Shown here: one piece after another, positions 1 to 19,575 of the stretch
Position numbering within the stretch: the first letter of the stretch is position 1
How the letters are laid out: each line of letters starts with the position of its first letter
Assembly: GCA_008632985.1 (NCBI GenBank)
Contig: QPGO01000190.1
Coordinates: 121,495-141,494, forward strand
Direction: 5' to 3'
DNA length: 20,000 nucleotides
Source of the DNA: Psammoneis japonica
Taxonomy: Eukaryota
Notes under the pieces: generated by a model
Databases searched by the model: none
Told to the model about the DNA's origin: nothing
The model's input: only the letters and a program-made list of their open reading frames with translations
Made by a program: the position numbers and the translations under genes

Positions 1-1
1 G

Positions 2-124
2 CGTAAAGTGGTTTTGGATGCATGGTTCTGTGCTGCCGACAGACTTGGTGTGGATCCATGGGATTGCTTAGGGATACAACGACAAGAGGACATCGGACAT
101 ACGTCTCTGCATCAACTGCTATGA
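2..124 (+). pseudogene. 3' end of a tubulin-tyrosine-ligase-family gene copy (partial; functional status unknown)
   Basis: Frame from base 2 reads RKVVLDAWFCAADRLGVDPWDCLGIQRQEDIGHTSLHQLL*, matching the C-terminus of the TTL-like ORF 7482..7769 (RRVVLDAWFCAADILGVDPWDCLGIQ). Confidence 0.75.
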
Positions 125-140
125 GTATCAACGCCTCTCA

Positions 141-880
141 TCACAGGGCCAGATAGTCACCAGACAAATCCCAGTCTTCAATGTGCTTCCCGCTTTCAAA
201 CCCTTTTGCCAATGTTGCCTTTAACAACCTCCTGGCAGTATCTTCCGACTTCACGAGTGTGCTTTCTTGGGAAGTGTGGAAGAATTTTCGTACTTTCTCG
301 TCCAGATCATGGCATTCAGTAAGCGCCGTCGTCATGGTTGCCGCTAGTAGGGTGCGTAGTTGAGGTATTCGACACTATATTTACCGCAATCTTCTTGCGA
401 TAGCGCCCGTTGAAACATACTAGCATCTATCTTCGCCTTACCAGCGCAACAAATTGACATTGTTGGAAACGGCTCTATCGCACATAGGGAAGATATGTTG
501 ACAACGACGAAGACAAAATGTGGAGGCGATGAAGGTGGGGTGCCCGACGACTTCTTGATCTATGATCTCCTGAACGAAACGACACTACTACAAACTCGAT
601 CTCACATTGAGACCAGTAGCCTCCTGGAAATTCCTTACAGACTCAAGTTTTAAGTAGGAGCCCAGAACGCCAAGCGTCCCTGCTTTGTTTATTACATGTA
701 GTATGACAAGTCAAATCGACAGAATGAAGAAGATTCCTCTTCCAGAAATCTATCAATTTACTAAGCCAATCTATCCGGCTCGGACTGGTCAATTGCATTT
801 TCACTAACTTCGAATGTTTGATGAGCTCGTGTTTCGTTTAGAAGCAGTCGTTCAGTCTCAAACAAATTGTCCTGCGACCA
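141..880 (-). pseudogene. Sepiapterin-reductase-like short-chain dehydrogenase pseudogene, copy 1, 5'-truncated
   Basis: Minus strand gives VINKAGTLG (NNAG motif), LNVRSSL* (in-frame stop), PFPTMSICCAGKA (YxxxK motif with Tyr as Cys, TGT at 449-451) and FESGKHIED. The N-terminal TGxxxGxG segment is missing because unrelated sequence begins at ~885. Confidence 0.8.
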
Positions 881-2692: not shown

Positions 2693-4886
2693 CATTGACA
2701 AGTGCAGTCTTCGCCGAAAGTTAAATTCATCACATGGCACTGCAGTTGACACAACGTTTGTGTTTGGGACACGCCATTGCCAATTAAATGATGTTTTTGT
2801 CTCATTTATCGCCAACGATTGAAATTTGTCTCAAAGGGCGTTTTTCACGACAAATCGTCCAATTCATTTAAGGGAATGTCGCAATTGGCGACAAAATGCC
2901 GTGTGTCCCTGGTCTGGAAGCATGGAACAAGCCATGCCTCACTTCAATGTCATGCGTGGACCCTGCACGGCATCGAGCACATTTGCTGAAAGAAAACACA
3001 GCCCAAACGCACCACTGTGACTGGCTCTCTTTAGAGACGGGCTTTTTTGGCCAGCTCTGGTCATCCTGAATGACTCGTTGTCCACCCTTTCAGGTTTTGT
3101 CATCAAAATGAATCTCTGGAATGTGTCCCACAAAGTTGGCCACTGCAAAATCATCGTCAGACAGATCTGATGCGGACCCACCCTCTGTTTTCAATGCAGT
3201 GCAAAAATGAAGATTTAGGTGCAACAGCGGACCACAGTGGGGTGAGGCAGAGGACACCACAGGGCAACCACAGGATTCTGCTGTGCAGAGATTTGATTTT
3301 TCGAAACTTCCCTCTGACACACCGTGCGTGCATGATGTTGGGGCATGCTGCAAACACACACCATCCCACATGCCATGCCACCAGCAAATCAAAATTGACA
3401 AGACAAACCCCCATGCTGCACTGCACAAACATTTGCATTTGCCAGCAGTGGCAACAATTTCCATCTGCAATCTTGCAACAGAGAGTGGCGCAAATGCACC
3501 TTCTCAGCACTTCTTGTTTCTCTGCTGAAATTCTGTTTAAAAAAGTTTTGCTGGGTGCAAAGTCAAAAATGAGCAGACAAGTCTTCACTTGCTGCCACAG
3601 TGTGCTCGCTGTGATTCTTGGCATGGTGTGTGGAACAATGGCTCGACTGACAACTGGATGAAAATTTCAGTTCAGCAGAACCACCGCACAGTCAAAAGAA
3701 AAGAGTCATGCCACACCACCACAGCAAAAGAGCTGCTGACAAAAAGACAAACCCAAATTAAATGCTGCAAAGCAACAGTGTGCATTGAAAAAGCACATCA
3801 TCCAAAACAAGCCTCTTTCAATTCACGACGTGACACCACGCAATGTCCCAACATGTCACAGACACAAACATGATGTGCGGTCTCTGGCCACAGTGCCAGA
3901 TTCTTGGCTGCCAGCCACTCTGGCTCCTGGCAGTCTCAGCACCACTCCAAGGCCCACCATGCCAATGGCTGGCTTGCCTTCAATTTCTTGTCCCTTTGGT
4001 GGGCTGGACACTTTCTTGATGGTTGGTCAAAACATGAGAGGTGTGGATGAGTCCAAATGAGCAACTGTCCAGCGCGGCTCATTGCCAAAGACCAACACAA
4101 AGCTCAAGCCACCTCCTCACCTTGAGCACCAAGGCCAAGCCACCCCTTCCAGGAGGCTGACCACAACGGGGTTCAGTTTGCCATCGTTGGACCGATCCTT
4201 GACATTGAACAAATCCATGAAACCCCTGCAGACTCCAAGGAAAGCCAGCGGATGGTTGTGCCAACAAGCACCAGAGCAAGGCAAGCATGTGGCCAGTTCA
4301 CCCAATGTGCTCATCGAGACACAAGTTGCCAAGACACAGATGCTGCATCCCACATGGTGCACAATGCTCAAAAATCAAATTGGCAAAGGCAGCAATGTGC
4401 GGCTGAGACTCATGAGCACATTGGCACTGGAGCAACCGTTGCTGAGGGCCAACCACAAGCTGGTGGGGGGGCAAAGGTCAACAGCCCCAAACTCATCACA
4501 ATGGCATCAAAGTGTCCAAGGTTCTGCACAAAACTTGGGAGCGTTGAAATGTGCCATGAGCACCATGGAAAGCATGTGCCAAGAAGTGAAAAGGAGCTGG
4601 GGCCCAAGATGCTCAAGGCACCCTTGGCTCCAAAGGGTGGTTGCAATTTGGTCGCGACATCGCCCAAGCACACTTGCCACTCTTAGATGTGCTGTGATGG
4701 GTTGGCGGGAAATTGTTGTTGGCGCTGGCCGCATCATCATCGTGTTGAATGTGCTTGGGTGCAACCGCCATTTCGAGCATTGTTCTGCGTGCTGTTTTGC
4801 ACGTACAAATGTGCGAAAAATTTGGACGCACCGAGACCCACGGCCCGCAAGCGCACGGCATATCCAGTTGAATCTGCTGTATCACC

Positions 4887-5864
4887 ATGTCGAAACCACC
4901 GGCTGCCAAGCGCCTTTGCGTAGACTTCTCAAGCACTGTGTTTGAGCTTGTCATTGGTAGTGGATTCTTTCCATGGTATGAGTTGAATGATGAGTGCCGC
5001 GTCGTTTCAAAAGGTTGGAACGAGGCCATTTCGACGGCGTTGAACAACGCGCCATTCTTTAAACAACTTGTTGAGCACATTGGCAAGCTCAATTGCTGCA
5101 ACAAGTGTGAATGGTGCAACCAGATTTATAGTGAAAAAAGTCGTCATGTATTTTGTATGACAAATGCTGGCAGTGATGAAAGGGCTCTAAAGGAGAAGGA
5201 TCCGCGCTGCCAAGATTCGTTCGATTCGCTTTCTAGCTTTGAGAAGGCGAGGCGATTGTATCTATTCCATGCAAAATGCATTTCCAACCTCCTGTCATTC
5301 TATGGAGAAGAGCTCTCTATAGAGGAATCGCTCTGTGCCCGCTATTGCATTCCTCATGATTGGTTCTGTGGCATGACCAGTCTTCGCGATTACAATCCAA
5401 ATGCCCATTGGCTCTTCATGGGCCTCGTCGAGCTACACATTGCCAAGATCGACTTGGCGCAAGGAACTTACTGGTATAAGCCTGCCTTTGCTGGTAGAGA
5501 ACGTAGTGCTGGGCGATTCACTGGGTCTTCCTATTATGGTTGGACTCACGACATTGTATTAGAAAAGCTCAACGGCGCTCCCCACGAAGCGGATGAGCGC
5601 AGCTTTGATGCTTTTTATGTAACGCGACGATCAGGAGAAAGGGGACGCTGGTACAAATCACAATTCAATCATCTGGAGGATATTATCAAGGGAATGCTCA
5701 ACGAGCGTGATTTGGTGGCCGATCAGTTGCTTGGAGAACAGTTGGCGAACCGCATTGACATTATGCACAAGGCACGCGATTCCATGATTCCTCGTCTCCC
5801 CGACATTTTCCCACTCGAGTGGATGCCAGTCTTTGAAGACGACTATATGTACGCGATTCCATGA
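4887..5864 (+). CDS. Hypothetical protein, 325 aa, with a possible divergent N-terminal F-box-like motif
   Basis: Intact ATG-to-TGA ORF with normal composition (14 Tyr). N-terminal PPAAKR (NLS-like) and VFELVIGSGFFPWYELNDECRVVSKGWNE resemble the F-box '..VSK.W' signature. The domain call is weak. Confidence 0.7.
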   Translation: MSKPPAAKRLCVDFSSTVFELVIGSGFFPWYELNDECRVVSKGWNEAISTALNNAPFFKQLVEHIGKLNCCNKCEWCNQIYSEKSRHVFCMTNAGSDERALKEKDPRCQDSFDSLSSFEKARRLYLFHAKCISNLLSFYGEELSIEESLCARYCIPHDWFCGMTSLRDYNPNAHWLFMGLVELHIAKIDLAQGTYWYKPAFAGRERSAGRFTGSSYYGWTHDIVLEKLNGAPHEADERSFDAFYVTRRSGERGRWYKSQFNHLEDIIKGMLNERDLVADQLLGEQLANRIDIMHKARDSMIPRLPDIFPLEWMPVFEDDYMYAIP

Positions 5865-6076
5865 TTCCTCGACTGATGAGAGTTTCAGTGGATCATTATT
5901 TGTTTGTGAATAAGTGTCCGGGATGAATAGCGACGCGAATAATGATGCAAAGGGATTGTGCATATCACCGGCAATTTTCTGCATCGATCTAAATTGTACT
6001 ACCGTAGCTTTCGCTGTATGGGGTCGATTCGACGATAGGCTATGTAGCGATACTTGCATTGGCTTACTAGTTTAGA

Positions 6077-7769
6077 TTGTTTATATATACATATATTGAT
6101 TCTATGCTGCTGCGTCGGAAAGGAGTTGAAATGTACCCTAAACATGCTGCGGATGTTGGAACAAAACTTCCGTTGGGCACCAAATGCAATCGCTCTGTCC
6201 ACCAGCAGCGACTGCACCAGACAGCATTCCAGCGGTTGGGACGCTATGTGAGAGCTAGCGAGAGCGATTGACGGATCAGGAGCAGTGCATCTGCCAAGCT
6301 CTTTACGCTTCATGTCTCTCACGTATCGGTCAAGACGAGCTGGCAGTTGTTTCTTATGATGCGTCTCTTTCACTCAAGCAATTTCTTACCGAAGAAACAC
6401 TTCAGGAAGTTCTTCAAGGAAAGGCGAAAACTCTTCAAAGACTGATGCGCTACGAGGAAGCCAGGAATGTCTTCTTCAGAGGTCAAATAACGGGATACTA
6501 TACGTGTGCGCTGCAGCAACTTGCTCCCTTCGGTTGGGTGCTACAGAATGGGCAATCCGAGTTTTGAGCATGTTTTGTGAGGACATAAAGAATAGCAGTA
6601 GCTTTCGTGCATAGGTAATACTCGGAGCCTTATTGGCCGTTGTCGATCACGAGAATGTCGACCATGAACGAATTGGTAGACAACTTGCACAGGGAGCCGT
6701 AGCTGAGCCACTCTTCTCCTGGATACATGCAGTCTGGCAGCTAAAACACGGTGACAAGCTAGCCCTTCTTAACACGTCCGGCGAACGGCAACATAACGTA
6801 GATTGCCACTTGCTTCTGGCAAAGGCCAACCAATCACCATTTGATTTTCCTTCCTTGATCCAATTGGATAATGAGGTCATCCTTCATCGGCTGTTAGCGA
6901 GCAAAGATGACGGTTCGGATGGAAATTTCTGGCCCACTGGATTCGTGCTCCCGGAGGAGTCTGCGAAACTACGGGCGCATATTGCTGATTCTCAAGCCAT
7001 GTCATCTTTGCATAATCTCAAGACGTGGATTCTGAAGAAACCATGTGGATACGGATCTCATGGCAACAAGTTGGTTACAAGTACTGAAGCAATCCAGACC
7101 TCTGAGAAAATGCTGCCGGGTCAAAGATGCCTTTGCCAACTAATGGTAGAGCCGCCTTTGCTTATTGAGGGCAGGAAGTTTTCATTGCGGATTTACGTTG
7201 TATACTTTTCGGAGTCCGCTTCAGGTGACGACCAATGTGGATATCTTTTTGTCTCGGACCAGGGTTTAGTTAAACTTGCTTCTGTCCCCTACGAAATTGG
7301 ACAAGATAGAAATGACGATCGAGCTCACATGACGAATTCTGGTCGAGAAGAGGCCATGACCAAGCAAGACTTAGTGTATCTCCGAGGGAATTTTGACAAA
7401 TGAGGCTTCCATTACAGCAAATTCTGGGTTTGCACATACAAATCGATACCATCAGTCATAGGAAGTTACGTCAAGAATATAATGGTAGAGGGAACGGTAT
7501 CCTATCGGTCTCGACTTGCCACTTTTGGAACCCCCAAAATCTTGGGCTTTGACTACGTGCTCGACGCTAACGCCACACCGTTTTTGATCGAGGTCAATCG
7601 CTTTCTCAGCCGGGAAGCAAGGGACAGAGGTGAAAAGTCTGTCAAGCGTAGAGTGGTTTTGGATGCATGGTTCTGTGCTGCCGACATACTTGGTGTGGAT
7701 CCATGGGATTGTTTAGGGATACAGCATCAACTGCTGAGTATAGACACCTTTCATCACGGCGCCAGTTAG
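6077..7769 (+). pseudogene. TPR plus tubulin-tyrosine-ligase (TTL/TTLL, ATP-grasp) family gene, disrupted
   Basis: TTL motifs WILKKPCGYGSHG, CQLMVEPPLLIEGRKFSLRIYVV, GLVKLAS, HMTNS and ILGFDYVLD..PFLIEVN are present. An in-frame TGA at 7401-7403 separates same-frame ORFs 6633..7403 and 7482..7769. Upstream fragments in other frames include TPR-like KAKTLQRLMRYEEARNVF. The 5' boundary is uncertain. Confidence 0.82.
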
Positions 7770-8593
7770 TCACCAAACAAACCGCAGTCTTCAACGTGCT
7801 TCCCGCTTTCAAACCCTTTTGCCGATGTTAGATTTACCAACCTCCTGTCCGTATCCTCCGCCTTCACTAGCGTGCCTTCTTCGTGAGAAGTGTGGAAGAA
7901 TTGTCGGAGTATCTCATCCAGTTCATCGTATTCATTAAGTGCCGTCGTCGTGTTAGCCTCACACGCTAGGTGAGCGTAGTCGAGGAAAGTGACACTACGT
8001 TCACCGCGATCTTCTTGCGCTATCGCATAGTGAAACATATCTCTCTCCGCCTTGCCAACACAATAAATTGACACGGTTGGAAACGGCTCTATGGCACAGA
8101 AGGAAGACTTGTTGACAACGACAAAACGTGGAGGCGATGAAGGGGGGTGCCCGATGGCTTCTTGATCTATGATCTCCTGAACAAAACGAACTCTAAGCCA
8201 CAAACTGGATGTCACATTGAGATCAATAGCCTCCCAAATCTCATACAGACTTAAGTTTCAATTAGGAGCCCAGAAGCCCAAGCGTACCTGCGTTGCTTAT
8301 TAGTATGGCACGATCAAATCAACTGAATGAAGAAGATTCCTCTTCCAGAATTTATCCAGCTCGGAAAGGTCAAATGCAATTTCCCCAAATTCGAGTGTGT
8401 GATGAGCTTGTGTTTCGTTTGGAAGGAGTCTTTCAGTCTCAAACAAATCGTCCCGCGACCGCACTACGAGAGACACTCGAATGATGGATATTTCATCAGA
8501 AGCATTTTTAACAAAAGAAGCTGCGATGGCACGTCCAATCCCTCTTGAGGTCCCAGTAGCAATAACTAGCATGGATGACACAATGCGAATCAC
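7766..8593 (-). pseudogene. Sepiapterin-reductase-like short-chain dehydrogenase pseudogene, copy 2
   Basis: VIATGTSRGIGRAIA (Rossmann TGxxxGxG), frameshift near 8300 into LISNAGTLG followed by a stop, then NVTSSLWL, VVNKSSFCAIEPF, IYCVGKAERDMF (YxxxK) and FESGKHVED. These match the sepiapterin reductase pattern (YCAGKAARDM; FxSGxHVD). Confidence 0.85.
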
Positions 8594-8806
8594 AACGCCA
8601 CCATTTCTTCACAACGAGATCAACTCCAATGTGTTTTGCGACGGACGCGTTGTGACGGCCTCTTCGGTCTAACTTGCCAAGCTGGAAGAGCGAGAGAAGC
8701 GCGCTATCCTTATAAAATTACTCGACTGAAATCAATGACTCACCATAATGTACGGTGGTAGCAACATCGAAAAAAGGTTAACTTCTTCAGGCTTCAGAAG
8801 ACGAAT

Positions 8807-9981
8807 CTAGTACCCATCCGGCCACTGGACAGGAAGCATCTTGTCATCGAAACACTTCCCTTCATCTAACCCGGTACCCCAGGTAACTCGCTTGGCAAGA
8901 ATTTGGACGCCAGCTTGTTCAGCTTTACGAAGATACTTGCAAAGGAAGGACAAGCTTCGTGGTTCGGTCGAAAGGATTCGGCATCGCCTCTAATCACAAC
9001 AAATAACACGGTGGTTTTGTATCGTTCACCATTTTCCCCGCGCAGTGTGCCTTTAGCAATGCGAGTGAGCTCTTGGACGTGGTGTATGGCACGAGCCGAG
9101 ACAACCTTTTCGCCATCTGGTCCTTTTTGATTTGATTTACCCCAAGGGAATATAGCTGTTCTGCTGTACGGCTGCTGATCGCTTGCAAAGATGCACTTTA
9201 GCTTTTCAGGATTTGGTAGAGCTGAGGAAGCATAGTCGGTGTCTACCACGGTTTTCACTTCAACAATACGCTTCGTGCCATCCAACTGAGTCACTAAGAA
9301 ATCACTGCGCATATTTGCTCCGCATGGATTTCGGATTTGTGTTTGAATGCTGGACATGCGAGGCAAGTCAGGAATCAGATTGTTGCGCAGCCAGGTCTCG
9401 GCAATGCGTTCTCCAAGAGACGGGTGTGCGCCAACCCATGTGGGAGGATAAAGCGTCGGTTCGAGGTGGGATTCGTCAACGAGCAGTAATTGAGTAATGA
9501 ACTCACACTTTGGCGTTCCGTACTTGGGAGAGACTGCGTCCGCACCAATTTTTACGCCATTTCGACCACGAGCAGGCTTAAGCAAGAGCGAGGCGCCGGG
9601 AACACACTTACCACCCATGTCAAGATTTGGTACATGCGCGATGGCTTCACGTTGTTCAGCTTCGAGCCATACGTCAGCAACATATGGGCTCCTGTTGCGC
9701 TTGGAAGGCCGAGCTGTCAATTTCGCCTCAACAAGCTCCTCATCTACGGCAAGGGAGAACAGAGGATCTCGACACCCGTCGCAATCCGTTGAAATGATCG
9801 GTTCAGGAGACGCCGCCCCTCCTTTTTTCATCGTCCCCCCCAATTGAGAAGTCCTCGCCTTTTTGGCTGCGACTTTTCTTGTCACACTCGAGCGGCGCGT
9901 AGAAACCATGACAGCGAAAGATCGACCTAAATCTAGTTCAGCGAAGAGAGCAGACGGAAGGAACAAGAGCTTGACTCTCAT
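8807..9981 (-). pseudogene. sfsA: SfsA-like (sugar fermentation stimulation protein, PD-(D/E)XK nuclease fold) gene with a 1-bp frameshift near 8937 (real lesion or sequence error)
   Basis: Motifs RPSKRNRSPYVADV, AHVPN, RSDFLV, VEVKTV, AIFP, VSARAIHHVQEL and LFVVIRGDAESFRPN. After CPSFA the SfsA-like tail continues in another frame (YLRKAEQAGVQILAKRVTWG...QWPDGY*) to a stop at 8807. The start may be at 9981 or 9909. Confidence 0.85.
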
Positions 9982-10246
9982 GCGGTTCAAGAAATGGAGG
10001 ATCGTATGAAGTCTTCGTAGTAGCAACACAGAGTCTTCTCATGCGGTACCTGACAGTCATGGGCGAGAAGTTGGGAATAAAGAATCATCAGCCGACCGCT
10101 GACGGTTGCGTGAAAGTACCGTATGCGAGATGAGATAGAGAGTAGACTCCTCTAATCTGTCGTCCATCAGGTTCTGAGTTAGTTCTTGAATTTTCCCGAC
10201 CCCGCCTCCTCCCCCCAAACTCCCCACGCTACCGCGCAAAACCTCG

Positions 10247-10462
10247 CAGCCAAGACTCTAAGCCAAGCAAGGAGAGGACCTCCTTGACTGGACCGAGAGT
10301 CACCGCGCGAATGTAGGAGCGAAATGGGTTGAAGGACGGACGACGGACGAGACGAGCGGAAACGAGGCCAGCCCAAGGGATCCCCTCATTGTCTGGCAGG
10401 ATGGGAGACACCATGGCACTGTCGGAGGCGTCTCCTGGGAGATGCCAACGATGAAAATCGAA
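10247..10462 (+). repeat. Split direct repeat A1 (216 bp)
   Basis: Identical to 18203..18418 except T10314 versus C18270 (gaatgTAgg / gaatgCAgg). Confidence 0.97.
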
Positions 10463-11385
10463 TGGCTTTTCTCCCTCTCCTGTCAGTCAATGCTGAAAAT
10501 CCCTTGCGTGGTCTGCTTGCGCAGCCGGGAGTGTCTCGTGCATTGGTGCCATTTGCCACCACGCCATTTCGGCGCTATCCTGTGGATGCACCTCCCAATT
10601 TTTTTCGCTGTTAATGCTGACTACGGTCACGCCATCTTGGCGCCATGTCATGTGGGCATTGCTCCAAATCCCGACTGGGTCCGCTTGTCAGCGGGGGCGC
10701 TTCGGCGGCCGAGGATTGCCTCGCACTCTGGCCCATTTGCCACACCTTTCAACGGTGCTTTCTTACAAGGAGTGCATCCTCATATAGACGGTCTCAGCAC
10801 CATTAAAGTCCCGCATGGGCAAATGGCAGTGTGGCTTTTTCATTCCGCCTGCCACTTTCTCCTGAACGCCCAGGTTGGGCCTTTTTCTTTTGCGGCTCTG
10901 CGGTCCATGGTCATCGCCTTCCCCCTCGGCGTGTCCAATTTTTTCCCTCTCCTGGGGACACAGCATGTTTAGGCTTGCACACCAGCACACCACAGCATCG
11001 GAATTGCCAGTTCTGTCTGGTCGATGTCAACTGCACACACACATGTGCATTCCCGCGAGGGTTTGGTCAAAACGAAATTTGCCACCACGTTTCGGGGTTT
11101 TTCGTCTTCTCGCGAAATGCGCGCCATCACGATGATGAATGGTGATGGAAACTGACCCGTCACATGGGGATGAAACTTGGATTTCTTTCTTGTCTCCATT
11201 CATTGGACAAGCACAGGAATCGCGAAGGGTTGCGTTCGCGGAACTGACACGGTGTCAGTCAACGCTTGTCCTTCTCGAGCAATTTCCACACGCTGGTGTC
11301 CTTCACTTTCCGGTGAGATTGCTCTCACTTTTCCTTTTTTGCGATCGGACGAGCCTTTAGTTTTCTGCTGCCCTGTTGTTCCACC

Positions 11386-13663
11386 ATGAACCAAGCCCAC
11401 GCTGCTGCCATCAACCGCGGCAAGCTCTCCGCTGCAAAGCGGTGCTCCGCCGCTTTGCCCTCCTCCACGGGTGCGATCGAGTCTGTCTCAACTGCTGTCC
11501 ACCGTGACACCCAGAAGGAGCTACGAGACCATGTCTTCGCGACCTCTGACCTTTTCTACGCGGTCCACAATCGCAAGATTGCGGTTGTGGCGAAACCTCG
11601 CCCCAGGCAGCACGCCGATGGGAATCTAAAGTGGATCGGGAGCCTCTCGGATGCGATCGGCGAGGTCATCCCGATGTCTGGTAGTTGGACTCGTTTCCAA
11701 GGCCATGCAACCACTCTAGTCCCCCAGGGCACTGTGGACACTTGTCACCTGCCCAAGTGCGAACTCAGCCCTGACGAGATTGACGGTCCCGTTGGCAACG
11801 ACGGCAACAACGTGCCGGCGTCGATGGGTCGTCTCCATTTTGGGAATCCTTCCGGACCGGCAGAGCGTCCCTCCATCGTCGCGCTCCCGATGTTCCTGCC
11901 AATCCCAACGGGCGTCACCCTTCCTGCTGACTTCGACCCAGCAGATCCCCCGGCATCCCTTGCCACTGACTTTCCGCTTGGAGCGGTTTGGGCTCAGGGC
12001 ATGTCCTGGTTGCTTCAGCACAACGCTTCTGTCTCTGTCACGGAAGGCGGCCCCATGTTTGAGCAGAATGGCTTTGCAATTGTCGATGAGTTTGCAGGCC
12101 TCGAGATCTGTGATCTCGACAACAATGACGCACAGATGCTCCAACCTCTGACGGATTGGTGTGCACCAGTCAAGACCACGATGGACGCCTTTGCAGATGA
12201 GACCTGGAGGCAACTCGGTGGAGAAGAGCCCGCGCAGATGCAAGCTCCCGCCGCCCCAGCCCAAGGTGCCAATGGACAGGTTCCGAACTGTGCCATCCAT
12301 GTCCCACGCCAGGACTCGAAGAAAGAGTCAGACCAGAAGCTGAGGGCGCGCGACATTGGTCACCGCTGGTCACTCTGTGCGTTCCGAGCGACTGCTGGTG
12401 CAGGTCCGGAGGACCCGCCTGTGATCATCGTGGGCGAGCTTACGGACCAAGCGGCTGAGATTCTTCAGGACACGTCGGCTGCCAATGCAAACCGTGACCT
12501 CGCGGATCTTGTTAAGATGGCTGTTGTTGCATCAGCCCGTGGTGACAGCAGTCTAGACGCTGGGGTCGACTGCAAGTGCACCATCGTCAACAAGGCCTGC
12601 ACGGACTGTTTCCACGGCTTTAATGTGGTTGCGGAGCCCCCGCAGCATGGCCAGGCTTCGCACCGCACGAAGCTGTCTGTCCTTCCTTTTCTTCCCCCGA
12701 AGACTGCATCATCTTCATTTGCTGGTCTCGAGGACGAAGGGAGGGTGCTCCATCGGGTGCTTGCCAATGGCTCCGACTGCAAGATCCCCGATGACGTGAA
12801 GGCAAGCAACCTTTGTGTCCAAGGAAGGATGGACACCGCCAGCAATCTGTGGTCAGTGCTTTGCAACTTTTGCTGTGTCCTTGGATGCTGGATCAAGGAC
12901 TTCGACAATGCGGAGCTGTGGAAGTCCCTGGATGCGCACGCAAAGGTTCTTTGGTCGCACCCGGGCCGCACGTGGCTCAAGAATCTCGAGGACCCCAAAC
13001 CAGTCGTCGCCAGCATCCCAGACAATTTCCAGACTATCATCAAAGTCCACTTTGAGATCGGAGACTCTCCATTGTGCCGTCAGGCGGTAGAAACCGAGCG
13101 TCCACTGAGCCATCAGATGGCAAAGGACGCTCGCACTCTGGTCGTCCCTCATTGCGGACCTCAAAACCGCGATCACGCGGGGCAAGCCTCTGGCCTTTGC
13201 GGAGGCATCTACGTTGGCCCTTGTCCCCCTGGGCAACTCTGTGTTCCTCCCTGCTAGCAGAACGAAGGATGATGCGACCAAGTCTGGTCAACCTCCGAAT
13301 GAGAAGCTGCGCACGGGGGAAACAGATGACAAAACCGCCAAGCTCTGCAAGGCGATGGGCATGCTCAATTTTTCGGGCACGAAGCGGCTCCCGACCAGCC
13401 CCGTTTTCTACAAGAAGCGAGGATCAGATCAGGAGGAACGTTTCTGCATGTGCTTTTGCACTGAGGGGCACTTCTGCAAATTCCCCAACTGCCCGAAGCC
13501 CCACCCATCGTCACTCTCCAAGATTCCGAGTGAAAAGAGGGATGCCTTTTGCCAATTTGTCAAAGACACCCCGGGACTCGATTTTGTTCCTGGCAAGGGC
13601 CCAGACGGTGCGTCCCAATCAGGTTCGAATGTTCCTAGTCTGTGCACTGCACCCTGTTGCTAA
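11386..13663 (+). pseudogene. gag: Gag-like ORF1 of the YR retrotransposon, frameshifted at ~13145, with a C-terminal CCCH-like zinc finger
   Basis: First long ORF of the element (11386..13257). Protein-like sequence continues in the frame of ORF 13214..13663 (LIADLKTAITRGKPLAF...RFCMCFCTEGHFCKFPNCPKPHP). The assignment rests on position and the Cys/His finger. Confidence 0.75.
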
Positions 13664-13744
13664 TGCAGTGTTGTCCAAAACTGTTCTGTTTTTCACTCTC
13701 GATTAGTCTACGTTATCCCTGACAGGTCCGTTCGTCTCATCGCA

Positions 13745-16606
13745 ATGGATGTCGACGACGACAGCGATCAGGAGTGCGAGGTGATCGATGCAGAGCAAGA
13801 CGAGACCGGAATGAGTGTCGCTGAAGCCATCCCAGCTGTTGATGCTGCACTTGCCACGTCGGTGAAGGAGCCGCACCCGAGCCTGTGCCGAGGTGCGGTC
13901 ACGCCGCAGCCTCCCGTCAACGAGAATGAGCTGATCGAGCCATTCCCCACCTTCTCCATGGTCCACAAGAAGAAAGGGACCGATTTGATTCCTACAATCA
14001 ATGACGGCTTCAATGAGAAGGCACGTGAGCACTTTGCCAATGCGGAACCATCGCCGGGCATGCGTGCTAAACTGGACCAAAAATTCGGCAAGGAAAACTT
14101 GAATCAATGTTTCTTGTCGGAAGCGTGTTTGCGTCATGTGTTGCCACCGCTGTTGAAATCTGGGTGCATGTCGCCACCGGTTGATTGCATGAGTGACTCA
14201 TCTGCCCAAATCGTCTTTGGGGGTGATTGGGAGAACTTCGGAGCGGCCATCCCGGAAGCAGCCGAGCCCATGAGCCTGGTCCGGGAATGTGGCGACATCG
14301 ACTTTAATCCTCTCCAAGGCTGCCCCGAGGGATGGCAAAAAGAGACAACGGTCAGTGTGGATAGAGCTGCGATGACAACTGCCGCGTTGTTGCATTTTGA
14401 TGGTGACCCAGCAAACCTCGTTCGCTGGGTTGGCGGACCGCACGTCGGTGAACACAGACACACGCAGAAAATGCTCCGCTTTCTACAAGGTCGTGCACCC
14501 GACGAGACAACAGCACACGTTCGCCGCATCTTCCAAGACGGGGCGCCAGCGAAATGCAACACTGCTTTCACTGAAGCCAACTTCCAAGCAGCTCTCAAGT
14601 GTGGAAACCACAAGACCGTCGACGCTGCACCTGACAAAACATTGGCGGCAGTCGCCAAGGACAATCGCAAGGGTTTCACGCCACTTTTTGACCAGCGTCT
14701 GGTGCCGCACTTGCTGAACTGCCATCTCACTCCTCAGGGGATGGTGGACCTTGACAAGAAATGCAAGAGTCCACGCCCCATCTTCGACAGCACGATGCGA
14801 GCGACTCCGGGTGGCATGGCAATCAACGATGCGTTGGACCTCAAGCACGAACCGCCGATCACGTTCCCATCAGCGGAAATGGACTTTGTGGTGTGGACAT
14901 GGAACATGAGAACATCCCACCCACACGAGGAGATCCACCTCGGCGATGATGATGTGAGTGGCGCTTTCCGCAACCTGAAGCACCACCCGAACCTCGTCGG
15001 GATGCATGCCAGCGTCCAGTGTGGACTGGGCGTCCTGCAGACGGGTTGTGCCTTTGGCGATGAGACCAACCCAAGCAACTGGGACGCTGTTGCCAATGCA
15101 AGACAATGCCTTGCTCAACAATTCTGGCTGGTGCCCAACGTGGTGGAACTCACCCAGCAGTGTCTCCCGACGACATCATTCGCCGAACCTCCTGCAGCTG
15201 AAGAGGCAGCGTCATTCTGTCCTGCGGAAGCAGACGCTGTCAATCCGGGCATGTTCCTAGATGGCTGCCGTTTGCCACCAACATGCAAGCACCACGTTGA
15301 CGATGACTTCTACGGAGACATGCATGACTTGATGAAAAGAACAGTCGCTGCGAGCGCCCTGGCCGTGTGCGTTTTGTTGGGCTTCCCACGCGATGAAACT
15401 CCGGATTTCCCAAGCAAAGAGAAACTGGACACACTGTGCTCACATCTCCGACGAGCCCTGGGAAGGCACTTCAACTCAAGAGCGCTGTCGGTGGGAATGC
15501 TCCCATGCAAACGAGAACAGTTCCTTGAAACTTTGCGAGAATGGCGCGACAAACAACGGCACACACTGTTGGATGCAGCAAACCCAAATGGTCAATGTGA
15601 ACTCCATGCGCGGTGTTGTCCATGGGCTCGGCCGAATTTTTTTGCACTCCAGAACTCCACGCGGCGGGCCATGGTCGTCCAATGCGCCATTGTCAAACAA
15701 ATCATGGAGCGACAAAATTTCAAATTAAATTTTGAAACTCAACTGCCGAGTCATCTCAGAAATGGGCCACCGAGCTTGCTCGCGCGCACACAGGCCCAGC
15801 TCCTCTGTCAGCTGAAGACCGAGATCCCGATGACATCCAATGTCATTGATGTGACAAAGGACACAGTGTCCTACATCGAATCAACGCCAGACCCATGGTC
15901 AGCACCGATTGGATGTGTCACACCGCAAGTGCCACATTGCCAGGCAATTGGAGACGCCAGCAACGCAGGCGGAGGAGCCCACTGCGCAGAACTCAAATTT
16001 TGGTTCGCATTTCTTTGGGGACCAAAAACAGCGAAAGGGCTCCGGCTGAGGAAGGCCTCCGACCCAGTGCATGTCCATGTCAACACAGCAGAGTTTGTTG
16101 TCATCACACTCAAGCTGGCAGCTGTGATTGTCCGCATGGAGACTGTGACCCGAGAACGGGCCCATGAGTTCTTCCGGAACGGCGTCGTCCCACTGCACCT
16201 GGTCGTCAGGAGTCGTTCAGACAACATGGTGTCGGTCAACCGGTCCAACAAAGCAACGTCAAAGTCGCCACAGGGGCAACGATTTGTCTGGGTCTTCTGC
16301 AAATTGCTCCACCGTGCTCGTGCCAACTTCAACGGAGATCACATCTTTGGCGACGAAAATTTTGTTGCCGACGATGTCTCACGACCTTCTGTTTTTGCCT
16401 TGATCTCGCATCGCACCCATTCTGAACAGCTGTTTCGGAAGTGTCCCTTTCTGAAGACCTGGGACTGTTTCCAGCCGAGTCAAGAGCTGCTGCAGCTCCT
16501 CTCCTCACAGCTGTCTGCCAAGCACAGAATGGCACCCCAGATCCCAAGCGACTTGGGACAGCTCGTTCCCGCAGAATCCATTTCCTCTGCTTTTGTAAGA
16601 GTGTGA
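13745..16606 (+). CDS. pol: Reverse transcriptase plus RNase H (open frame, heavily mutated)
   Basis: RT motifs PRPIFD, DDDVSGAFR, GCAFGDETNPSNW and HHVDDD. DIRS-type RNase H motifs GDASNAGGGA, HVNTAEF, RSDN and HIFGDENFVADDVSR. Confidence 0.93.
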   Translation: MDVDDDSDQECEVIDAEQDETGMSVAEAIPAVDAALATSVKEPHPSLCRGAVTPQPPVNENELIEPFPTFSMVHKKKGTDLIPTINDGFNEKAREHFANAEPSPGMRAKLDQKFGKENLNQCFLSEACLRHVLPPLLKSGCMSPPVDCMSDSSAQIVFGGDWENFGAAIPEAAEPMSLVRECGDIDFNPLQGCPEGWQKETTVSVDRAAMTTAALLHFDGDPANLVRWVGGPHVGEHRHTQKMLRFLQGRAPDETTAHVRRIFQDGAPAKCNTAFTEANFQAALKCGNHKTVDAAPDKTLAAVAKDNRKGFTPLFDQRLVPHLLNCHLTPQGMVDLDKKCKSPRPIFDSTMRATPGGMAINDALDLKHEPPITFPSAEMDFVVWTWNMRTSHPHEEIHLGDDDVSGAFRNLKHHPNLVGMHASVQCGLGVLQTGCAFGDETNPSNWDAVANARQCLAQQFWLVPNVVELTQQCLPTTSFAEPPAAEEAASFCPAEADAVNPGMFLDGCRLPPTCKHHVDDDFYGDMHDLMKRTVAASALAVCVLLGFPRDETPDFPSKEKLDTLCSHLRRALGRHFNSRALSVGMLPCKREQFLETLREWRDKQRHTLLDAANPNGQCELHARCCPWARPNFFALQNSTRRAMVVQCAIVKQIMERQNFKLNFETQLPSHLRNGPPSLLARTQAQLLCQLKTEIPMTSNVIDVTKDTVSYIESTPDPWSAPIGCVTPQVPHCQAIGDASNAGGGAHCAELKFWFAFLWGPKTAKGLRLRKASDPVHVHVNTAEFVVITLKLAAVIVRMETVTRERAHEFFRNGVVPLHLVVRSRSDNMVSVNRSNKATSKSPQGQRFVWVFCKLLHRARANFNGDHIFGDENFVADDVSRPSVFALISHRTHSEQLFRKCPFLKTWDCFQPSQELLQLLSSQLSAKHRMAPQIPSDLGQLVPAESISSAFVRV

Positions 16607-17682
16607 AGTGGCATCTGGGAGATCCGGAAATGACTGTGATTGGCAAGGACCCAAAGTGCTGCCAACTGGTGCCAGCCATGTGTGCTTTGCATCTAGCTAG
16701 CGGCTCCACTCTCTGCTGCAAGAACATCTCCTCAGGTGCCATCAAGGAACATGTCCATGACATGTCAACGTTCGTGTCTCCACTTGGTTCCACGTGTCGG
16801 GACGTCCGCAAAGACAACAGCGTGGACACCAAGATGGGGTGGATCCTCAGGGGAGCATTCGATGAACTCCAACGGTGCGAGAAAGTCCCGGAAAGGCGCG
16901 AGTCACACACGTTGCTCATGCAGCAACGAGCGACGTCGACAGCAGACACTGTGCGAGAAACCGACCCGGATGCGATCGAAGTGGTCCTCGCTGACTGGTT
17001 TGAGATTGGGCCAATGGCCGGCTTGCGAAGTGTTGAATGGGCCCAATCCAATGAACACTCAGAACTGGAGAATCCAAGGCTGAACATCTTTGAGGAGACC
17101 TGCGCGTTCTGCCTCGACGACGTCCGATGCGAGACAAAAGACAAGCGCCGACACACCGGGGCGGATTGTCTTGTCCCCAAGCAAGAGGATGTCGAAAGCA
17201 TGCGTGTCATGTTCCGAGCTCAGAAGAACATGCACAATGGCGAGGAATGCCAGTTTGCTGTGAACCTTGATGGCAAGCACGACTTGGCAAAGCCGATGCT
17301 TCGCGTTGTCCGACGTTTCGTGCGGGTCCGTGGCAAGGACGACAAGATCTGCCCCCTTGCTCTCTACTTTGATCCAGAGAAGGGCAAGCACCGTCTCGTC
17401 ACGTCCAAGAAAATCGAGACCCACATGCGCCGAATTGCCGCAGAAGTGCACCACCTCGACCCGGTGAAAGACAAGAAAGCTCTTGGCAAATGGTCGGCTC
17501 ACTCCCTCCGTGTTGGAGCCTGTAATGTCCTTCACGAGATGAACTTTAGTGGCGAGCAGATTAAATGGCTGCTCAGATGGCGATCTGATGCCTTTGTGGC
17601 TTGTCTCCGCAACTGCCTGGGTCTTTCCCAGGCCCATTGTCGAGCTCTCGACAAGGCGGCACCCATGCCGTTCTTCGATTAA
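16441..17682 (+). CDS. Tyrosine recombinase (open frame; catalytic Tyr position is Cys), overlapping the RT/RH 3' end
   Basis: GLRSVEW (catalytic R), AQKN (K), HSLRVGA (HxxR) and LLRWRSDAFVACLR (W, plus the expected nucleophile Tyr seen as TGT at 17602-17604). The true start is uncertain. Confidence 0.92.
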   Translation: MSLSEDLGLFPAESRAAAAPLLTAVCQAQNGTPDPKRLGTARSRRIHFLCFCKSVKWHLGDPEMTVIGKDPKCCQLVPAMCALHLASGSTLCCKNISSGAIKEHVHDMSTFVSPLGSTCRDVRKDNSVDTKMGWILRGAFDELQRCEKVPERRESHTLLMQQRATSTADTVRETDPDAIEVVLADWFEIGPMAGLRSVEWAQSNEHSELENPRLNIFEETCAFCLDDVRCETKDKRRHTGADCLVPKQEDVESMRVMFRAQKNMHNGEECQFAVNLDGKHDLAKPMLRVVRRFVRVRGKDDKICPLALYFDPEKGKHRLVTSKKIETHMRRIAAEVHHLDPVKDKKALGKWSAHSLRVGACNVLHEMNFSGEQIKWLLRWRSDAFVACLRNCLGLSQAHCRALDKAAPMPFFD

Positions 17683-17950
17683 TTCCTTTGTGCGGATTCA
17701 ACACATCCCCTTTCCATGTGTCCTCTCTGCGTGACATAAAATCGCACACTGTTGTCCCATTGCATCTGAAATTTCAATTTTGAAATTCGAAATTTGATCC
17801 TGGCAACGTGATCGCACACATGTGTTCAGGAGGAACATTTGTTCCTCCATCATGTCTGAAGAAAATAGATTTTTTTTTCCGGCTGGCTCTGCCTCCGATG
17901 ACATGGGCGCGTTCGCAATGCTTCCAGCATTCCGCGTCGGCAGCATGGTG

Positions 17951-18201
17951 TGCACACAGTGAAAAAGGGAACCAATTGCTTGGCACTGGCGATTCCAAGC
18001 CTGGCCCCACATCCTAATTGCTTCACCTGCTGGCGACTGTTTTCATCGTGGCAACAACATGAGTCTACACACGGACATGAGCACTGCGCATGTCACAGAT
18101 GACACCAATGTGTTGCATCGACAGATGAGAGACGCTTCCACTGTGCCATGTCATCAGAGTGCAGACAGCCGAGGCGGAGGCAGGGAATCCATGGGATTCT
18201 C
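17951..18201 (+). repeat. Split direct repeat B1 (~251 bp)
   Basis: Gap-free alignment to 18438..18688 with about 23 differences, all transitions. Confidence 0.95.
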
Positions 18202-18202
18202 A

Positions 18203-18418
18203 CAGCCAAGACTCTAAGCCAAGCAAGGAGAGGACCTCCTTGACTGGACCGAGAGTCACCGCGCGAATGCAGGAGCGAAATGGGTTGAAGGACGGACGAC
18301 GGACGAGACGAGCGGAAACGAGGCCAGCCCAAGGGATCCCCTCATTGTCTGGCAGGATGGGAGACACCATGGCACTGTCGGAGGCGTCTCCTGGGAGATG
18401 CCAACGATGAAAATCGAA
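18203..18418 (+). repeat. Split direct repeat A2
   Basis: 215/216 identical to 10247..10462. Confidence 0.97.
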
Positions 18419-18437
18419 AACCCACCACTCCCTCCCC

Positions 18438-18688
18438 TGTGCACAGTGAAAAAGGGAACCAATTGCTTGGCACTGGCGATTCCAAGCCCAGTCCCATGTC
18501 CCAATTGCTTCACCTGCTAGCGACTGTTTTCATCGTGGCAACAACATGAGTCTACACACGGATGTGAGTGCTGCGCATGTTGTAGACGACACCAATGTGT
18601 TGCATCGACAGACAAGAGACGCTTCCACTGTGCCATGTCATCGGAGTGCAGACAGCCGAGGCGGAGGCAGGGAATCCGTGGGGTTCCC
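18438..18688 (+). repeat. Split direct repeat B2
   Basis: Gap-free copy of 17951..18201 (offset 487). Confidence 0.95.
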
Positions 18689-19063
18689 CCTGTGGTGCAG
18701 TGGGGGAGCTGTGTGTGTGTGCGTGTGGTTGTGTGCACACGGCTTCGCCGTGCGTTGAGTTTTAATGTTAATGTCCACACGCACGTGCATGTTCCACAAG
18801 CAAAAATTCCTGTTCCACAGCTCCCCTAAAACTCTAACCACCAAAAACCGAGGGGTTGGAAGCGCACTTTCGGGAGCTCTTTTTCTCCGCACAAAAAACA
18901 CGCGTTTCGTCGACTCGACCATGATGATGCCTCGTGGTTCTTCCCCATCGCCTTCCCAGGACGCCGATCCCACTGACACCGTTGCCAATGACACTGATGC
19001 AACAGGTGATGTCATTGTTCCGGTTCTCGTGGGTGTGATGCGCACAAAATAAGATGCTGCAAA

Positions 19064-19575
19064 CTCACACTGTTGTTTGCATGCTCCACCGCCTCCCACA
19101 GATGCTGTCACGAATTCCAACACCGCACCTGCGTTTCGGGCCCCCAGCATGCCCGATGCTGTCACTCCCACCCTTGCTGCTGCAGGCGCTGTTGATGCTG
19201 TCACTGTGTTTTGCCAATGACGTCCACAATGAAATGTCAACATCTCACACTTCTTTCATTCTCGCCCCACCGCCTCCCACAGACACCATCACGAATTCCA
19301 ACACCGTGCCTGCGTTTCGGCCCCCTGGCATGCCCGACACTGTCACTCCTGCCCTCACTGCCGCAGGTGCTGTTGATGCTGTTGTTGTCTTTTTGCCAAT
19401 GACGTCCACAACGAAATGCTTGTAACTCACACTTCTTTCATTCTCGCCCCACCGCCTCCCACAGATGCTGTCACGAACTCCAATGCCGCACCTGCGTTTC
19501 GGCCCCCTGGCATGCCCGACACTGTTGGTCCCACCCTTGCTGCTGCAGTTGCTGTTGATGCTGTCATTGTTTTTG
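19064..19575 (+). repeat. Three diverged tandem units of ~180-182 bp in a TpA-depleted block
   Basis: Units start at ctcacac (19064, 19244, 19426), and each contains ccaccgcctcccacaga...cctgcgtttcgg...gcatgcccga...gctgttgatgctgt. Confidence 0.9.

Follow-up and report, generated by a model that had tools for sequence, protein, structure and literature searches.

Erasure of TpA dinucleotides in a young Ngaro-like retroelement of the diatom Psammoneis japonica

The DNA analysed here, in the following called the window, is a stretch of 20,000 nucleotides from the diatom Psammoneis japonica (NCBI GenBank assembly GCA_008632985.1, contig QPGO01000190.1, positions 121,495 to 141,494 of the forward strand). 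It harbors a young Ngaro-like tyrosine recombinase (YR) retroelement, an assignment made from the repeat layout, the order of the open reading frames (ORFs) and motifs (Table 1). The observed/expected ratio (O/E) of the dinucleotide TpA (TA) amounts to 0.13 for the element and to 0.61 for positions 4901-10243. We are highly confident that comparison of related copies and paired repeats reveals the direction, rates, tracts and sequence context of this TA erasure, and its independence from CpG loss. The process acts at the DNA level, after insertion and regionally, by TpA-specific transitions separate from CpG decay. An earlier, sequence-only reading of the locus had used the two A repeats of the element as an internal control.

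Table 1. Coordinates of the retroelement, its parts and the neighbouring host gene (positions counted from the first letter of the window)
Feature	Position	Strand	Basis or remark
Full-length YR retroelement, Ngaro-like, A1-ORFs-B1 A2 B2	10244..18686	+	Repeats; ends set from six copies
A1 repeat, 219 bp, 17 CpG, four founder TA sites	10244..10462	+	Copy alignment
Three bases omitted by the sequence-only reading	10244..10246	+	Contain a CpG that is CpA in A2 (18202)
ORF1, 623 aa, no Pfam match	11386..13257	+	Gag-like by position only
Cys/His-rich frame in continuation of ORF1	13109-13663	+	
ORF2, reverse transcriptase/RNase H-like	13664..16606	+	Feature look-alikes of a homologue, and motifs
ORF3, tyrosine recombinase	16426..17682	+	R and HxxR present
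B1 repeat, 245 bp	17955..18199	+	Approximately 19 TA in founder, 2 TA remaining
A2 repeat	18200..18418	+	Compared with A1: CpG>CpA at 18202, TpA>CpA at 18270
B2 repeat	18442..18686	+	20 transitions compared with B1
SfsA-like neighbouring host gene, TA not erased	8866..9909	-	Named relatives are diatom proteins

The split direct repeats A1...B1 A2 B2 were confirmed in the window element. According to the accessible part of the source, this A1-[ORFs]-B1 A2 B2 layout is that of Ngaro in the order DIRS (PMC8547959), and a second source, likewise accessible in part, gives the same layout for PAT-like and VIPER elements (PMC6681497). Within the same limits, the element further resembles Ngaro in its ORF order (gag-like, reverse transcriptase (RT)/RNase H, YR) and in the HxxR motif, and differs in the RT motif HVDD, the lack of a Pfam match for RT or ORF1, and the loss of the catalytic Tyr in these copies. 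It should be noted that the label Ngaro-like is provisional, as the layout is also common to PAT-like and VIPER elements.

In brief, ORF1 is presumably gag, judging by its position. A Pfam scan of the window copy gave no match for ORF1, RT or YR. ORF2 has 64 relatives; neither the 11 that were scanned nor ORF2 itself matched Pfam, and its assignment comes from feature look-alikes of a homologue, which carry RVT_1 or RNase H at 0.93-0.96. HVDD is the RT motif native to the ORF2 family, being found in 56 relatives, and the idea that it is a mutated YVDD, and hence evidence of TA loss, was rejected for this reason. Together with the proteins P0073-P0128, ORF2 belongs to a large unnamed family of YR-retroelement RTs that go undetected by Pfam and carry HVDD as catalytic motif. 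ORF3 has 72 relatives. PF00589 (phage integrase family) was matched by 4 of 14 aligned members, and the catalytic Tyr of the recombinase is present in all 60 relatives covering that site.

A genome search with the A repeat gave 37 matches, and the best full-length copies were retrieved. Three independent young insertions were compared: the window copy, C33, and the group C287, C324, C270 and C240. The members of this group were rejected as four insertions and counted as one duplicated insertion, because their 5' flanks are 99.4-100% alike. A star model of three copies, covering 1993 pyrimidine-purine (YpR) sites, gave a fitted TA loss of 0.83 in the window copy and 0.77 in each of the other two insertions, and a fitted CpG loss of 0.10, 0.10 and 0.12; per site, CpG loss is approximately 8 times slower than TA loss in this family. 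The fitted founder held approximately 315 TA and 589 CG, its TA O/E was approximately 0.66, like that of host DNA, and the fitted rate of TG/CA>TA was 0. A model forbidding TA in the founder gave a negative log-likelihood of 5055 vs 4396. The outcomes in the window copy, read on the sense strand, were 113 TG vs 125 CA. Copy C240 has lost 19 of the 67 TA and 38 of the 509 CG common to its three sister copies. Duplicates of one insertion keep diverging at TA.

CpG decay is also visible in these copies. The window copy has lost 41 of the 474 CpGs kept in both other insertions, vs 27 private changes in 4304 non-YpR columns, and among the singletons of the six copies CG>TG/CA forms the largest class (109 of 191). 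The sequence-only reading had held that CpG deamination is minor and cannot easily explain the excess of TG and CA. Per site this stands, with a CpG loss of about 10% vs about 83% for TA, and the model without founder TA is 659 log-likelihood units worse; however, CpG decay is real, well above background, and has struck one CpG within A2 itself.

The elements of the duplicated group (C287, C324, C270 and C240; L001-L004) differ at 53-204 sites despite their shared flanks. C287 deviates from its three duplicates at the 3' end, and between C324 and its sisters there are 11-14 transversions, which suggests exchange between copies.

The direction of change can be read from C33, where B2 carries 16 TA vs 1 in its own B1, and the same positions are TG or CA in all other B copies. 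It can also be followed in the proteins. There are 17 Tyr conserved in 56 RT and 61 YR relatives; in the window element 11 of these are Cys or His, three are other residues and three are kept, all three in the context CTAC. ORF2 keeps 2 of its 12 conserved Tyr and has Cys or His at 7, and ORF3 keeps 1 of 5. The position of the catalytic Tyr of the recombinase (17602) is TGT, Cys, in all six copies. TA erasure makes no stop codons.

Some further observations were made on copies and relatives. In C33 (A2 and B2, L005:8443-8929) the erasure ends inside the element, approximately 500 bp from its 3' end, and the flank adjoining this end has normal TA (O/E 0.68). C182 has a similar B1/B2 contrast (12 TA vs TG/CA sites). 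The environmental recombinase relatives P0001 and P0003 have Cys at conserved Tyr positions, P0001 having the lowest Tyr content (1.1%), which hints at the same process in other organisms.

Paired end repeats of another kind of retroelement allowed a comparison per sequence context. From 150 listed copia RT hits, 40 were chosen for long open frames; 37 of these loci gave a direct-repeat pair and three gave none. One pair (L052) was dropped, as its repeats are 78% alike, 1 kb long and outside the positions of long terminal repeats (LTRs), leaving 36 LTR pairs. Discordance in these affects 270 of 511 TA sites (TA vs TG/CA at 233, TG vs CA at 37), compared with 33 of 585 at CpG and 30 of 5238 in the remaining columns. 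Among the LTR pairs, 20 are free of differences in their 2890 remaining columns, and in these 127 of 270 TA and 18 of 317 CpG sites are discordant. In paired end repeats, TA changes to TG/CA approximately 10 times faster than CG decays. This comparison, which the sequence-only reading had itself proposed, strongly bears out its claim that TpA loss is fast relative to background. Young pairs were not dominated by CpG transitions, the outcome it had named as refuting; in older A pairs in which TA is exhausted, CpG differences lead. TA erasure thus comes first and CpG decay after. Copia copies with 99.7-100% LTR identity have an internal TA O/E of 0.70-0.71, and because copies with near-identical LTRs hold normal internal TA, the loss must be post-insertion.

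A natural unhit copy served as the reference for each of eight copies from one copia family, six of which proved to be hit. In the six, TA>TG is found at 717 of 3448 strand-sites. CG>CA (72 of 4489) and AA>AG (66 of 4996) are both near the level between unhit copies; GA>GG was 25 of 5743 and CA>CG 84 of 5639. Per copy, there were 10-12 AA>AG events in heavily hit copies vs 7 and 11 in unhit ones. The A:T>G:C transitions are thus confined to TpA. The hits lie in tracts several kilobases long, which stop inside the element with fairly sharp edges, and in four of the six copies none of 2000 permutations was as clustered as the observed order of hit and spared TA (the other two, p 0.02 and 0.06). 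TG and CA are intermixed within tracts, and in the YR copies strand coordination is weak and short-range (p 0.01-0.86). Context matters as well: in copia, loss per strand is 0.17-0.32 at TAY vs 0.08-0.26 at TAR, and the YR copies kept 18 of 18 TTAA and 12 of 213 RTAY, counting sites that are visible only where copies differ or keep TA.

The loss was one-sided in 16 of the 21 LTR pairs with at least 5 events. It leans weakly to the TA-poorer flank (Spearman -0.43, p 0.017, 30 pairs; 17 of 28 by sign). The idea that the loss always favours one end, 5' or 3', was rejected, as 12 pairs are hit more at the 5' LTR and 20 at the 3' LTR; the side of the tract seems family-dependent, at best. In one copia family (L022, L023, L024 and L041 vs L051), erasure runs inward from the 5' end in four copies and comes from the 3' side in one. 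In another (L047, L050, L053-L059), the first internal fifth mostly keeps TA (O/E approximately 0.6).

The A repeats themselves had been described as 216 bp with 16 CpG in each copy, the CpGs untouched and a TA versus CA as the only difference. For 10247-10462 vs 18203-18418 the length, the CpG count and the single mismatch, T10314 (gaatgTAgg) vs C18270 (gaatgCAgg), are right. However, the 5' end of the element is TCGCAGCC (TCGCAG) in 6 of 6 full-length aligned copies, and the B1/A2 junction reads GGATTC followed by TCGCAGCC in 5 of 6, TCACAGCC being found in the window copy only. The true A repeat is 10244-10462 and 18200-18418, with 219 bp and 17 CpG sites; its two copies are mismatched twice, by a TpA>CpA and by a CpG>CpA (G10246 vs A18202). 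The earlier boundary fell 3 bp short because the CpG change at 18202 had set it, and for the whole repeat it is false both that the CpGs are untouched and that TA versus CA is the only difference.

The site 10314/18270 is TA, CA or TG depending on the copy, which supports the TA/CA polarity, and A1 and A2 disagree here in all three independent insertions, in differing directions. The founder TA sites in A1 are 10259 and 10314, both still TA, 10417, now CA, and 10436, now TG; each of the four is TA in at least one relative, and three are in resistant contexts (CTAA, GTAG, CTAG). The B repeat had approximately 19 founder TA sites in a length similar to that of A. In the window A repeats, 5 of 8 TA copies are lost vs 1 of 34 CpG copies (Fisher p 0.0004; without site 10417, TA lost 3 of 6, p 0.008), and four of the five TA losses are hidden in the pair, A1 and A2 showing the same product. 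The B1 and B2 repeats differ at 20 of 245 bases, all transitions (3 TA vs TG/CA, 6 TG vs CA doublets, 3 CpG and 2 other). A is slow everywhere, since A repeats across insertions are 97-99.5% alike to the window A1 vs 92-95% for element bodies. The likeness of A1 and A2 comes from A holding only four TA sites, three of them resistant, and not from little having happened.

The near-identity of A1 and A2 exceeds chance, yet it does not date the insertion. That the insertion is young, as the sequence-only reading had it, is upheld instead by transversions, of which there are 0 in the 464 paired columns of A and B, and 15 in 8444 columns compared with the nearest independent copy, C33. At 10% CpG loss, the probability of at most one loss in 34 CpG copies is P = 0.12; with this value and only four TA sites, A1/A2 is a weak control of low power that adds little by itself. 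Special protection of CpG in A was not established, the losses being 4 of 94 there and 124 of 1333 outside A (p 0.13). In the old, TA-exhausted A pairs of C359 and C107, CpG is the largest class of differences, being discordant at 10 of 16 and 7 of 11 sites, respectively. Overall, the observation on the A pair is confirmed in part and its interpretation supported in part: the conclusions were right, but the pair, underpowered and mis-cut, does not prove them.

Host-like DNA in the window has kept its TA. Two duplicated host-like segments (window 1-879 with 7646-8460, and window 6243-7645 with L019:8595-9995; 77% and 94% alike) have 20 and 48 shared TA and 0 and 1 TG/CA doublets, respectively, on this contig only. 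Amid these segments lies a tubulin-tyrosine-ligase-like frame at 6615-7403, with a stop preceding its apparent last part (7404-7769). Other parts of the window are TA-poor. Positions 1836-2942 hold a TA-poor element resembling a miniature inverted-repeat transposable element; its inverted arms are 83 bp long, and inside it are palindromes and the simple repeats GACAC and TGTCGG. Positions 3000-4800 have a TA O/E of 0-0.06 (3001-4500) and a CpG ratio of approximately 0.3, as an older, late-stage relic, at whose edge begins a 330-aa frame (4872-5864) with no Pfam match. Three tandem units of 181-182 bp (19028-19572) are TA-erased, with units 2 and 3 differing by 8 TG/CA doublets, and their very high depth in a public run suggests a high-copy repeat.

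According to these observations, the element was inserted with normal TA content (approximately 315 TA, O/E approximately 0.66) and then underwent two separate in-place mutation processes. The fast one turns T:A in TpA into C:G (TA to TG or CA) at approximately 83% of sites in the window copy, in kilobase chromosomal tracts, on both strands without coordination and with a preference for TAY. The slow one is ordinary CpG decay (approximately 10%), such as CG methylation of transposons in diatoms would lead one to expect. As for the agent, silenced chromatin may recruit a TadA/ADAT-like DNA adenine deaminase of the host, perhaps with methylated adenine as its substrate, which would make deoxyinosine at TpA that replication would fix as G. 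Tyr codons, including that of the recombinase catalytic Tyr, would be removed in this way and the element crippled without stops. An adenine deaminase guided by silenced chromatin is in our view the likeliest agent, with the chances for and against it evenly balanced. Several points weigh against this account. The nine deaminase-family matches in the genome are of the kind present in every cell, and none is singled out. Deamination of A and modification of T are inseparable by sequence, because TpA is its own complement. The copia copies have no long strand-coordinated runs (p 0.13-1.0), and for this reason a processive single-pass enzyme on one strand is unsupported. The rate model treats the three copies as a star tree, the choice of LTR loci by long frames favours young elements and few families, and the role in defence is presumed.

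Modification of thymine is unlikely, although it would produce the same base-pair change on both strands, would not need single-stranded DNA and fits the lack of strand coordination. Here T in TpA of silenced DNA would pair with G after oxidation or another modification, of the 5-hydroxymethyl- or 5-formyluracil type; 5-formyluracil miscodes. No such modification was found in the literature searched, and a search of the genome for Tet_JBP gave no match, but the control likewise matched nowhere. An error-prone, Pol eta-like polymerase resynthesising patches after repair of deaminated 5-methylcytosine or other damage in heterochromatin would leave tracts on both strands, as observed, and the window copy has a small excess of A>G outside YpR (20 of 2191 A/T vs 1 G>A of 2113 G/C). 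The signature of Pol eta is WA>WG, however, and AA>AG shows no increase in the copia copies that are heavily hit, CpGs inside tracts are near background, and the non-TA excess of A>G is absent in C33 (7 vs 6). As AA>AG and CpG do not rise, such patches are disfavoured and largely refuted for that spectrum, and we consider them improbable. We hold it just as improbable that the mutagenesis is a side effect of chromatin state, for example of a decaying adenine mark on TpA, with no role in defence. The lean towards the TA-poorer flank, as if domains spread from older repeats, and the absence of new stops would agree with this; against it, only 17 of 28 pairs obey the flank rule, near-saturation before neutral changes implies an active process, and the catalytic Tyr is lost in all six copies.

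Explanations placing the change before insertion or in the comparison itself fare worse. ADAR-like editing of RNA or cDNA during retrotransposition has in its favour that ADAR prefers a 5' U (10.64898/2026.01.13.699255, in its accessible part), and gene conversion that some exchange between copies is likely (3' end of C287). Both these and an assembly collapse equalising A1 and A2 are very improbable. RNA editing fails because of the two-strand symmetry, with sense-strand TG and CA equally common (113 vs 125); moreover, the two LTRs of a single insertion differ, and duplicates of one insertion go on losing TA (C240, 19 of 67). Equalised repeats are at odds with A1 and A2 differing in 6 of 6 young copies, and collapse is unlikely because the A copies are not identical and have separate flanks. 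In assembled contigs of the public run, 360 of 391 differing places are transitions; these contigs do not span the A copies. Finally, CpG deamination alone (with CpA>TpA), in a family where TA was always scarce, would agree with CG>TG/CA leading the singletons among six copies (109 of 191) and dominating the older A pairs. It is refuted here and practically without a chance: a founder without TA fits far worse (5055 vs 4396), B2 of C33 still carries TAs, Tyr>Cys/His cannot arise from CpG, and young LTR pairs differ mainly at TA.

TA erasure in this diatom is of the same kind as the TpA hypermutation in Bigelowiella natans (Mettrop et al., bioRxiv 10.64898/2026.01.13.699255). The accessible part of that preprint describes TpA-specific hypermutation of integrated DNA of nucleocytoplasmic large DNA viruses (NCLDV) as well as of virophages, at a rate that was measured de novo, raised approximately 1000-fold and active in only some lines; an A-deaminase is proposed as the enzyme, and TpA-poor genes are enriched in RT and DDE domains. 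As far as that text goes, both systems have T:A>C:G almost only at TpA, with TG and CA outcomes, at the DNA level after integration, and both affect foreign or mobile DNA and spare host genes (tested here on this contig only). They differ in host, a diatom vs a chlorarachniophyte, and in targets, which here are retrotransposons of two orders. Moreover, a loss reaching 80-90%, kilobase tracts, the TAY preference and independence from CpG loss are visible here, and the rate is inferred from copies instead of measured de novo. The patchy tracts are compatible with activity in only some lines, as in Bigelowiella. The literature searched, with subscription journals mostly outside its coverage, holds no report of TpA hypermutation in a diatom.

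The dense, dinucleotide-specific transitions that cripple repeats in place recall, as partly described in our sources, the repeat-induced point mutation (RIP) of ascomycetes. RIP is a C>T change, mostly at CpA, and creates TpA; here, in contrast, TpA is removed and the fitted rate of TG/CA>TA is 0. Duplication alone is seemingly no trigger, since the two host-like duplicates keep TA; these are two cases only, one of them just 77% alike. In Phaeodactylum, CG methylation of transposons depends on DNMT5a (PMC9998398, accessible part). By analogy with that system, methylation of this type would explain the slow decay of CpG to TpG/CpA (approximately 10%). It cannot turn TA into TG/CA, and the TA tracts form while CpGs are intact.

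In the literature searched, one preprint on one alga is the only source for a natural, targeted mutator that changes A:T to G:C in nuclear DNA, and its signature on diatom retrotransposons brings the question into a group with CRISPR genetics. The range of possible chemistries is narrowed by the kilobase tracts, the involvement of both strands, the TAY preference and the fact that neither CpG loss nor AA>AG is coupled to the erasure. A practical consequence is that terminal-repeat identity cannot date insertions in this genome, because one repeat may be erased and its twin left alone, and a repeat poor in TA, like A, gives a false impression of being intact. We tentatively speculate that diatoms run a dedicated genome-defence mutator, a chromatin-guided enzyme rewriting TpA on both strands of new transposons, in tracts of kilobase size, preceding and independent of CpG decay and stripping the catalytic Tyr, which may be an old system of the stramenopile-alveolate-rhizarian (SAR) group shared with Rhizaria. 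If true, it would be a chemical mirror of fungal RIP and a natural adenine editor of double-stranded DNA.

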